Shown: piece after piece, positions 21,427 to 23,576 of the stretch
Layout of the letters: every line of letters begins with the position of its first letter
Numbering within the stretch: position 1 is the first letter of the stretch
Sequence record: KP869105
From: Escherichia coli O157 typing phage 7
Reading direction: 5' to 3' (one strand)
Length of the DNA stretch: 64,000 nt
Notes under the pieces: model-generated
What the model saw: only the letters and a program-made list of their open reading frames with translations
What the model was told of the DNA's origin: nothing
Databases searched by the model: none
Program-made: the position numbers and the translations under genes

Positions 21427-21456
21427 TTCAAAATGAAGAAAGGGGCCGAAGCCCCT
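21427..21456 (-). terminator. intrinsic terminator after hoc
   Basis: AGGGGC-CGAA-GCCCCT hairpin with a T-rich run on the minus strand. Confidence 0.5.
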
Positions 21457-21461
21457 TTCGA

Positions 21462-22886
21462 TTATGGATAAGTATAGATGATACCAGTTTCTAAAGCAGT
21501 TTTATGGATGATGTATCCATTACGTGATTCTTGAACATCAACTTCTGAATAATCTTTCATCATCTTCTGAAGCGTATAACGATGCAAGTAGTACTTACTA
21601 TCTGGATCTTCAGTTTTCCAATCTTTACCTTCTTCAGTCATTTTTTGGATTTCATCCATAACCCACCAACCGCACCAGATATAAGCTGAAGTACGATGTG
21701 GAAGAGGATGAACATAAGGCAATTCACCTTCTGGTTCCGGAGCAACTTTATCAGTTACCTGAACTTGACCTGTTGTTTTAACTGTTTTACTATCATAGTC
21801 GGTTGCTGTAACGACAGCAGTAACTTCAATAGTTTGACTTCCAATAGATGAGGTGTCAACGGTGTATACGTTAGTTGACCCTTCTACAGGAGAAGAATCT
21901 TTCTTCCATGAATAAGTAATTTGTGCTGCTTCAGGTGCTCCAGTAACATTAGCCGTAAATGTAGCCGAAGCATCTTGCTGAACGTTAATAGAAGGAGGAG
22001 TCAATGTAACCTGTGGATTCATTGTCTTCTTATTAACTGTCAATGATACTTCATTAGAAGTAACTTCCTTTTCATTGTAATTTTCTGCAGTTACTTGCGC
22101 TACACATTTAATTCTTTTTACTCCACTTGTAGTTGGAGTATAGTTAAATGTAGAGTTAGTTTCTCCACCAATTTGAGAATCATCTACATACCACTTATAT
22201 GTAGCAGACGCTCCATCAGGTTGAGAAGCTAAGGCAGCAGTAAATTGAACTGGAGTTCCAATTACTCCAGCTGAAGGACTATTAGGAGTTACAACTAAAG
22301 TAGTCGCTTGGGTTTTCTTGTTAACAGTCAGCGACACTTCGTCAGAAGTAACGGTCTTTGTATCATAATCTGTCGCAGTTACTTGAGCTACACACTTAAT
22401 TTTTTTAACTCCGCTTGTGGCAGGAGTATAGTTAAATGTAGCGTCAGTTGCTTCTCCCACAGGAGAACCGTCGACGTGCCATTGATACGTAGCAGATGCA
22501 CCTGGCGGCTGTGAATCTAAGGCAGCGGTAAATTGAACAGCTGTTCCGATTACTCCTTCCGAAGGACTATCAGGAGTTACTGTTATTGTAGTAGTCTGTG
22601 TCTTATTTTGAACTGTGATAGTTGTCGTAGCTTCTGCTGTTTCAGGTTCAGATTCAGATTCTGGAACTGTATTTGTTGCAACGACTTTAATAGTCTTTTG
22701 ACCGGCAGGTCCTTTTAGTACATAACTAAAAGTTGCTTCAGCTCCATCCTGTGGAACATTATCTACACTCCAAGCATAGGTAATAGTTCCACCTTCAGTT
22801 TGACCACTGGGTGCAGCAGTAAACTGCTTGGTTTCATCAATAACTCCTGTTGGGGTTTTAGGAGTTATATCAACTGTAAAAGTCAT
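21462..22886 (-). CDS. hoc: head outer capsid protein Hoc, four Ig-like domains
   Basis: 474 aa; N-terminus MTFTVDITPKTPTGVIDETKQFTA and capsid-binding C-terminus ...YIWCGWWVMDEIQKMTEEGKDWK as recalled for T4 Hoc; internal duplicated Ig module. Confidence 0.9.
   Translation of the reverse strand: MTFTVDITPKTPTGVIDETKQFTAAPSGQTEGGTITYAWSVDNVPQDGAEATFSYVLKGPAGQKTIKVVATNTVPESESEPETAEATTTITVQNKTQTTTITVTPDSPSEGVIGTAVQFTAALDSQPPGASATYQWHVDGSPVGEATDATFNYTPATSGVKKIKCVAQVTATDYDTKTVTSDEVSLTVNKKTQATTLVVTPNSPSAGVIGTPVQFTAALASQPDGASATYKWYVDDSQIGGETNSTFNYTPTTSGVKRIKCVAQVTAENYNEKEVTSNEVSLTVNKKTMNPQVTLTPPSINVQQDASATFTANVTGAPEAAQITYSWKKDSSPVEGSTNVYTVDTSSIGSQTIEVTAVVTATDYDSKTVKTTGQVQVTDKVAPEPEGELPYVHPLPHRTSAYIWCGWWVMDEIQKMTEEGKDWKTEDPDSKYYLHRYTLQKMMKDYSEVDVQESRNGYIIHKTALETGIIYTYP
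22026..22595 (-). repeat. tandem direct repeat of about 285 bp inside hoc (duplicated Ig-like domain)
   Basis: Protein modules TVTPDSPSEGVIGTAVQFTAAL...KIKCVAQVTATDYD...SLTVNKKT and TPNSPSAGVIGTPVQFTAAL...RIKCVAQVTAENYN...SLTVNKKT are in tandem; DNA units visibly alignable. Confidence 0.7.
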
Positions 22887-22895
22887 AAGTTATCC

Positions 22896-23576
22896 TTATT
22901 TTAATGTTACGAAAGAAGAATTGCGTGTTTCACGAATTAGAACTGATCCGTCACGATTAATGTAGTAAATTAAGCTAAACAAAGTTTGATGCGCAGACGC
23001 ATGTTCAAAACTGGTTGGGCGAGATTTCCAATCTGGAGTTTCAGCAATCCATTGGTAAATCCACCAAGGAACAGTGCAGAATCCTGGATTTTTTCCAATC
23101 AGCTGAAGATTCGGGCTAAAGTTTTCCGGAAGAGTAAATACAGACGGCTTTTCAGATTCAATAATCTTATCTACAGCTTGTTCAAACTTTTCTTCAACAA
23201 AAGGAGTGTCTTCAATCAAAACATCAGTATTTTCAGGAATTTTATCCGTTTCTACCACTTCAATTTTAATATCAGATTTAACTGGAGAATCAATCAGAAG
23301 TGCTGCTTCTGGATTAACTTCTTCATCGTCATATTTTAATCCCTCTGCAGCATCAGCAGCATCAATTAAGTCTTTAATAGATAACCCATCAGTCTCTGGC
23401 ATAGGTTCACTAGCGAGCTTCTGGAGGGCTTCTTCAATATCAACAACGATATTATCAAAAGATTTATTCTTTTTGACCTTTATACCAAATTGCTCAGCAT
23501 ATTCAGCTAATTTAGCTTTAGCTTCTTTATTATCATCAAGAGCCTTTAACTCTGCAATATAATCTTTATCTATCAT
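22896..23576 (-). CDS. inh: inhibitor of prohead protease gp21
   Basis: 226 aa as in T4 Inh; immediately downstream of hoc on the same strand. Confidence 0.75.
   Translation of the reverse strand: MIDKDYIAELKALDDNKEAKAKLAEYAEQFGIKVKKNKSFDNIVVDIEEALQKLASEPMPETDGLSIKDLIDAADAAEGLKYDDEEVNPEAALLIDSPVKSDIKIEVVETDKIPENTDVLIEDTPFVEEKFEQAVDKIIESEKPSVFTLPENFSPNLQLIGKNPGFCTVPWWIYQWIAETPDWKSRPTSFEHASAHQTLFSLIYYINRDGSVLIRETRNSSFVTLK

Follow-up and report, generated by a model that had tools for sequence, protein, structure and literature searches.

The hoc gene of Escherichia coli O157 typing phage 7 is very probably the ordinary hoc of phage wV7, a four-Ig allele in which the two central modules (M2 and M3) are old paralogues, the number of such modules changes through recombination, and the four-Ig form has collapsed repeatedly within the wV7 clade. 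The gene lies in a 64,000-nt stretch of sequence record KP869105, hereafter the window. Our analysis yields corrections more than novelty: Hoc with four Ig modules is a common and old form, this form does not reflect a recent event, and in the wV7 clade it has a tendency to lose one module and become three-Ig. We consider this a small addition to knowledge and not a discovery; the gene is a common allele of a known protein.

The gene product matched PHROGs 21694 and 1149, Hoc-like head decoration, and the hoc region is 100% identical to that of Escherichia phage wV7 (HM997020 / NC_019505) and 99.6% identical to that of AR1; the wV7 hoc sequence is already deposited and annotated. The surroundings show the T4-type synteny rnlB, 24.2, 24.3, hoc, inh, uvsW. 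Homologues of 24.3 and 24.2 and RNA ligase 2 lie downstream of hoc, and the UvsW helicase gene is on the opposite strand. PHROG matches identified the neighbours as Inh, RNA ligase and helicase, and the genes are laid out as in the T4 record X14869. A preliminary description of this DNA had called the reading frame hoc, an identification confirmed by the PHROG match, by a C-terminal domain 97% identical to that of T4, and by the T4 synteny. T4 also has a putative terminator annotated after hoc at the same place as the terminator-like hairpin listed in Table 1. No copy of the T4 late-promoter motif TATAAATA was found immediately before hoc or inh on the minus strand.

Table 1. Features of the hoc region, in positions of the window.
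Feature	Position	Strand	Remarks
hoc CDS, 474 aa + stop	21462..22886	-	ORF list; PHROG 1149 Hoc-like head decoration, E = 6e-145
Module 1 (M1), distal Ig-like domain, aa 1-95	22602..22886	-	T4 Hoc domain 1 orthologue, 92% aa identity
(TTCAGA) x3.5 hexanucleotide repeat	22641..22661	.	encodes the ESESEP loop of M1; site of a 2-aa insertion relative to T4
Module 2 (M2), domain-2-type Ig/PKD cassette, aa 96-191	22314..22601	-	first repeat unit; absent from T4
Module 3 (M3), domain-2-type Ig/PKD cassette, aa 192-287	22026..22313	-	second repeat unit; T4 Hoc domain 2 orthologue, 86% aa identity
Module 4 (M4), Ig_3/I-set-like, aa 288-382	21741..22025	-	T4 Hoc domain 3 orthologue, 87% aa identity
C-terminal capsid-binding domain, aa 383-474	21465..21740	-	97% identity with T4 Hoc 285-376
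Terminator-like hairpin GAAAGGGGC-TTCG-GCCCCTTTC, then T-rich run	21438..21459	-	2 nt past the hoc stop
inh	22896-23576	-	upstream neighbour; inh stop 9 nt from the hoc ATG

Decomposition of the protein gave four Ig-like modules followed by a conserved C-terminus, in agreement with the preliminary description, whose coordinates for modules 2 and 3 are 3-6 nt off the module frame defined here. Pfam matches to PKD, Ig_3, Ig_2 and I-set cover Hoc residues 109-358. An AlphaFold2 model, for which 30 four-Ig homologues served as input, consists of all-beta modules over residues 1-380 (mean pLDDT 77-96 per 10-residue block), and the C-terminal domain was poorly modelled (pLDDT < 50). In Foldseek, the top PDB matches to this model were four-Ig strings (Dscam1, ICAM-5 D1-D4). 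A further match, with E = 3.9e-10, was 3SHS, the crystal structure of RB49 Hoc; whole-model TM-scores were low (0.15-0.25), since the inter-domain geometry is arbitrary and the domain-level matches alone are meaningful. The N-terminal part of Hoc is predicted to form a linear string of Ig-like (PKD/Ig/I-set) domains.

We compared the protein to T4 Hoc (PDB 5vf3 chain Z; a model is given in PMC10385173), which is 376 aa long and has three Ig-like modules, as the preliminary description had stated. T4 Hoc has the same plan, with an Ig-like string and then a capsid-binding C-terminal domain, and its gene occupies the same position. The alignment falls into two blocks, wV7 residues 1-109 corresponding to T4 1-107 and residues 192-474 to T4 94-376, showing that wV7 Hoc differs by one extra 96-aa domain-2-type module plus 2 aa. 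T4 thus has one module fewer. The extra module is M2, which sits between the counterparts of T4 domains 1 and 2, and the 2 aa are an SE insertion in the domain 1 loop. Both M2 and M3 resemble T4 domain 2, which is nearer to M3 (86% at the protein level) than to M2 (77%). M2 is a tandem paralogue of that domain, added in frame.

When the Hoc protein was compared with itself, one diagonal, displaced by exactly 96 aa, dominated the plot (59/80 identities). At the DNA level, a repeat search found a 288-nt direct repeat (22024-22311 and 22312-22599, 75% identity, spacing 288). Tandem Repeats Finder, run with a minimum score of 30, did not report it. Aligned ungapped and in frame, M2 and M3 share 217/288 nucleotides (75.3%) and 71/96 amino acids (74%). 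Their BLASTP score is 144 bits, when all other module pairs score 43-56 bits at 31-41% identity; judged by these comparisons, the likeness of M2 and M3 is far beyond chance. The two had been described as very similar in protein and DNA. This is right in that they stand far above the other module pairs, but 75% nucleotide and 74% amino acid identity make it an overstatement.

How old is the split between M2 and M3? The 71 nucleotide differences are distributed 19/12/40 over the three codon positions, and the Nei-Gojobori method gave a dS of ∼0.96, a dN of 0.17 and an omega of 0.17. For comparison, dS between wV7 and T4 is 0.19 for M1, 0.31 for M3 and domain 2, 0.43 for M4 and domain 3, 0.45 for the C-terminal domain and 0.34 for the tail of inh. 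The dS between M2 and M3 is thus two to five times that separating the other Hoc modules of wV7 and T4 (0.19-0.45), which makes the M2/M3 split several times older than the wV7-T4 split. The low omega points to purifying selection on both M2 and M3, so both copies look functional. Consistent with an old split, each unit is more like a domain 2 that stands alone in another Hoc than like the unit beside it (75% DNA, 74% protein identity): M2 matches the only domain 2 of the three-Ig phage GiZh at ∼90% DNA identity, and for M3 the protein identity is 86% with T4 domain 2 and 95% with that of the three-Ig IMG/VR Hoc L008. Domain 2 of phage ESh25 is 97% identical to M3, but it is a collapse product (see below) and gives no independent evidence on age. 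A megablast search with M2 alone retrieved 13 records from ten phages at 99.7% identity or above; the next relatives, GiZh included, were at ∼90%. M2 and M3 are therefore old paralogues, both under purifying selection.

These figures bear directly on the proposal of a recent duplication made in the preliminary description, taken here as an in situ duplication of domain 2 in the wV7 lineage. The two units do lie next to each other, in frame, without gaps and at 288 nt each, and no other pair of modules comes close to them in similarity. Yet copies of a recent duplicate should be near-identical with a dS below that of close relatives, they should be restricted to a single lineage, and each copy should be nearest to its neighbour. 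Instead, we found 75% nucleotide identity with a dS of 0.96 (against 0.19-0.45 between wV7 and T4), a four-Ig form present in ∼30% of the sampled relatives, and modules in other phages, three-Ig phages among them, to which M2 and M3 are each much closer than to one another. The order of an M2-like module followed by an M3-like module is also common to a whole family of 472-aa Hocs (see below). We asked whether any multi-module Hoc contains a recent duplicate: among 42 adjacent domain-2-type pairs, identities ranged from 73 to 85%, none exceeded 85%, and no recent duplicate was found. The divergence between M2 and M3 thus rules out the proposal, which we consider highly improbable.

An even less probable explanation is that the assembler expanded a repeat of which the phage has one true unit. 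Tandem repeats carry this risk in general, and nothing further speaks for it here. The units differ at 71/288 positions, and their longest in-register shared run is 19 nt; reads from units this different would not be joined wrongly. M2 is at least 99.7% identical in wV7, AR1, ES26, ESh32, EPIMAM01, Sf21, PYps32T, PYps47T, REP2 and REP3, always in the same arrangement; the reading frame is intact, and the omega of 0.17 indicates selection on both copies. An identity of 75% combined with the agreement of ten separately sequenced phages excludes assembly expansion.

We wondered how common the four-Ig form is and scored 60 evenly spaced records out of 678 matching phage records. Hoc has three Ig modules in 32 of them (span 1116-1134 nt) and four in 18 (1418-1425 nt), while two, five and six modules were each found once, in KIT06 (852 nt, 283 aa), CCU7 (1704 nt, 567 aa) and slur03 (1995 nt, 664 aa), respectively; the other 7/60 were partial or from other genera. 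The four-Ig form thus accounts for ∼30% of the sampled Tequatrovirus-type records, so it is common and not special to the wV7 genome. The lengths of the proteins fall into matching classes: among the best 120 of 899 protein matches (clusters), 81 are 375-378 aa long, 30 are 468-472 aa and nine are 567-570 aa. In a scan of IMG/VR covering 21 loci, mostly from other genera, a length ladder with steps of ∼95 aa extends from 179 to 668 aa in more distant T4-like phages.

Module decomposition located this variation. T4 Hoc has one domain-2-type cassette, wV7 has two, UGKSEcP2 three and slur03 four, showing that the varying part of Hoc is mostly the number of domain-2-type cassettes. The KIT06 protein is built differently and consists of M1, domain 2 and the C-terminal domain without M4. 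The 472-aa four-Ig family of Tequatrovirus phages (PP01, CAM-21, NBG2, HP3, BF15) has the same order as wV7 (M1, M2-like, M3-like, M4, C-terminal domain) and 83-94% overall protein identity with wV7 Hoc. Its members lack the 2-aa SE insertion of wV7, and their first domain-2 cassette belongs to another sub-cluster, ∼80-86% identical to wV7 M2. Average-linkage clustering of 172 domain-2-type modules gave four clusters. Owing to the mosaic nature of the cassettes, the clusters are fuzzy (∼90% identity within, ∼80% between) and informative only in part. In four-Ig Hocs, 29/32 of the second-position modules fell in cluster 2 and 22/29 of the third-position modules in cluster 3. wV7 M3 belongs to cluster 3 and wV7 M2 to the small cluster 1.

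Close relatives of wV7 with three Ig modules showed how the two forms are related. The hoc genes of ESh25 and OE5505 are near-identical in DNA to that of wV7 save for one clean 288-nt gap. M2 and M3 differ at 71 nucleotide positions, and we typed the relatives at each of these as M2 or M3, which gives a much clearer picture than clustering. The single domain 2 of ESh25 is M2-type through position 9 of 71 and M3-type thereafter; that of OE5505 changes from M2-type to M3-type after position 14 of 71. The crossover intervals in the two phages contain few identical nucleotides, 9 nt or less. All nine 378-aa Hocs with a wV7-like M1 (at least 97% identity) among the best 120 of 899 protein matches carry a domain 2 that starts as M2 and finishes as M3, and none of the 378-aa Hocs in that set has an M2-type tail. 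Together with OE5505, these nine proteins display at least six distinct simple breakpoints and two mosaics. The 378-aa Hocs of the wV7 clade (ESh25, OE5505 and clusters P0070, P0072, P0083, P0088, P0089, P0092, P0093 and P0096) are 97-100% identical to wV7 in M1, M4 and the C-terminal domain, and they share its SE insertion. They differ in having one chimeric domain 2 with a breakpoint that varies by phage, and are collapse products of a wV7-type gene.

A domain that begins as M2 and ends as M3 is the outcome to be expected of in-register unequal crossing-over, or of slippage, between two diverged repeats that already existed, and does not look like the parent of a duplication. Four Ig modules are thus ancestral in the wV7 clade, and the three-Ig form has arisen there repeatedly by loss of one cassette. 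The mildly new element of this work is this sequence evidence for repeated M2/M3 recombination that loses one wV7-type cassette.

Could the array instead have been assembled from separate alleles? Co-infecting phages with three-Ig alleles and diverged second domains may have recombined unequally and stacked their cassettes, with no duplication within a genome. Among the best 120 of 899 matches, three-Ig Hocs with an M2-like (47) or an M3-like (39) domain 2 both exist, and the modules are joined by conserved linkers, NK(K)TQ.TT, through which alleles could pair out of register. That recombination does swap cassettes is indicated by UGKSEcP2, in which M1, M4 and the C-terminal domain are 97-99% identical to wV7 yet the domain-2 cassettes differ (∼81%). 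However, the near-constant order of M2-like then M3-like modules in four-Ig Hocs suggests one old event, and the three-Ig relatives in the wV7 clade are all derived chimeras and not candidate parents. We consider stacking an unlikely route; it bears on the ultimate origin of the array only and leaves the identity of the gene unaffected.

Taken together, these results strongly favor an ordinary wV7 hoc gene whose 288-nt cassettes change in number when they recombine unequally but in register, or when slippage occurs between them. By this mechanism the four-Ig gene of the wV7 clade has collapsed to three Ig modules on several independent occasions. Three-Ig Hocs with a purely M2-like or a purely M3-like domain 2 also exist, and cassettes are mosaic; the first four-Ig gene could equally have arisen by duplication within a genome or by unequal recombination between two diverged alleles.

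In T4, one Hoc molecule stands at the centre of each gp23 hexamer, making 155 per head, and the protein is dispensable for growth. Hoc of T4 binds the hexamer centre via its C-terminal domain (PMC10385173, PMC9958956). Given 97% identity in this domain, wV7 Hoc would be anchored in the same way, and the extra mid-fibre module would push M1 about one Ig domain beyond the 180-Å fibre of T4. We read an SLT motif in the sequence at the end of M2 (185-187) and again at the end of M3 (281-283), so that wV7 Hoc would present the domain-2 surface, including this motif, twice.

Hoc of T4, PNJ-6 and PNJ-9 is known to attach to mucin glycans or cell surfaces by its Ig-like domains, as in the BAM model, and mucin or fucose binding maps to different Hoc domains in different phages (PMC11150434, PMC11853027). 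In PNJ-6, binding lies in Hoc domain 1 (PMC11150434); in PNJ-9, S183-L184-T185 at the end of Hoc domain 2 are implicated in MUC2 binding (PMC11853027); for T4 Hoc, a passage of PMC11853027 cites D246, in domain 3, as a binding residue. By analogy with this published work on Hoc and mucus binding, an adaptive role of Ig-domain number is plausible. A bolder reading, which we offer tentatively as a possibility, is that the domain-2 array serves to switch the length of the capsid fibre: old, diverged 288-nt cassettes, present in one to four copies, would be gained and lost repeatedly by in-register unequal recombination at very short homologies (9 nt or less at the two breakpoints mapped in DNA), and selection, not drift affecting a dispensable gene, would maintain the resulting two- to six-Ig polymorphism in Tequatrovirus populations. 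If so, the agents of selection might be differing mucus or cell-surface environments, or escape from antibody against a highly immunogenic protein. Of this reading, the chimeric genes establish the recurrent collapse from four to three modules in the wV7 clade; that selection maintains the variants is our conjecture. In practice, differences in Ig number between hoc alleles matter when therapy phages are compared, and several of the four-Ig phages are biocontrol phages of E. coli O157:H7.

In the literature we covered, which is incomplete, neither the four-Ig allele of Tequatrovirus nor its collapse products were described, and no relevant paper on Hoc of wV7 or AR1 was found. That the number of Ig modules in Hoc varies is already known. 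Fokine et al. (2023) described 650 Hoc homologues, most with Ig-like strings, including two from Serratia phage Muldoon, one of which has 10 Ig-like domains and the other 2 (PMC10385173), and Fu et al. (2024) reported a PNJ-9 Hoc that lacks domain 3 (PMC11853027), the architecture that we found in KIT06. The PNJ-9 and Muldoon proteins follow the same principle as wV7 Hoc: the capsid-binding C-terminal domain is constant, and the Ig-like modules vary in number. They differ from it in the modules concerned: in those phages, other modules have been lost or many divergent ones added, whereas wV7 Hoc carries one extra domain-2 cassette.

The longer Hocs of related phages differ in how their Ig-like cassettes are made up. 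We compared them with the Hoc of wV7, which is 100% identical to the window over hoc. CCU7 Hoc (601-2304 in its locus) has 567 aa, and its two middle modules show just 40-50% identity to any wV7 module. Its domain 3 is also divergent (48%), yet its C-terminal domain is still 96% identical. The middle cassettes of CCU7 Hoc seem to come from a source outside the Tequatrovirus domain-2 family. The UGKSEcP2 Hoc (protein cluster P0001, 570 aa) has wV7-like ends, with 97% identity in module 1, 99% in module 4, and 99% in the C-terminal domain, while each of its three domain-2-type cassettes is only ~81% identical to those of wV7. Its cassette array appears to have been swapped by recombination, with the flanks retained. 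A Hoc homologue from a T4-like genome of ~167 kb in a distant genus (IMGVR_UViG_2706796453_000001, 44-2050 in locus L020) is one more long form: it has 668 aa, 37% identity, and a different N-terminus (MKELPGKTITFKITNV...).

A smaller length difference lies in module 1. The 6-nt (2-aa) indel that separates this gene from T4 hoc falls at a hexanucleotide repeat, and the same 2-aa indel at ESESEP sets the Hoc length classes of 474, 378, and 570 aa apart from those of 472, 376, and 568 aa. This looks like slippage within a surface loop. The assignment of UGKSEcP2 Hoc to the 570-aa rather than the 568-aa class suggests that it shares the SE insertion with wV7.

Sequence features within and next to hoc
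Feature	Window position	Strand	Description
(TTCAGA) x3.5 hexanucleotide repeat	22641-22661		in hoc module 1; codes for ESESEP
Antisense ORF	22308-22514	+	68 aa, within hoc
Antisense ORF	22533-22718	+	61 aa, within hoc
Terminator-like hairpin, GAAAGGGGC-TTCG-GCCCCTTTC, then T-rich run	21438-21459	-	strong; 2 nt past hoc stop codon

Among the matching phage records, several relatives carry an interrupted hoc. The OE5505 gene is broken into two CDS (301-978 and 1177-1437 in its locus), the FriedrichMiescher gene carries a two-part annotation (Hoc part 1, Hoc part 2), and in some relatives the gene span is 1418 or 1420 nt. The interruptions mean either that hoc, which is dispensable, is decaying in these phages or that the sequences contain errors. 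The hypothetical protein ar1_183, annotated under hoc in the AR1 GenBank record, is probably a spurious call of an antisense ORF like those tabulated.

Among the database hits, many four-Ig phages (AR1, CAM-21, BECP11, and JY01) were isolated on E. coli O157:H7. This could be due to relatedness or sampling and not to biology.

The inh stop codon is separated from the hoc ATG by 9 nt only (22887-22895, minus strand), and a motif search found no exact T4 late-promoter motif (TATAAATA) on the minus strand from hoc to 25646. Both genes are probably co-transcribed from one promoter. At the other end of hoc, the position of the hairpin is matched in T4 by an annotated putative terminator after the gene.
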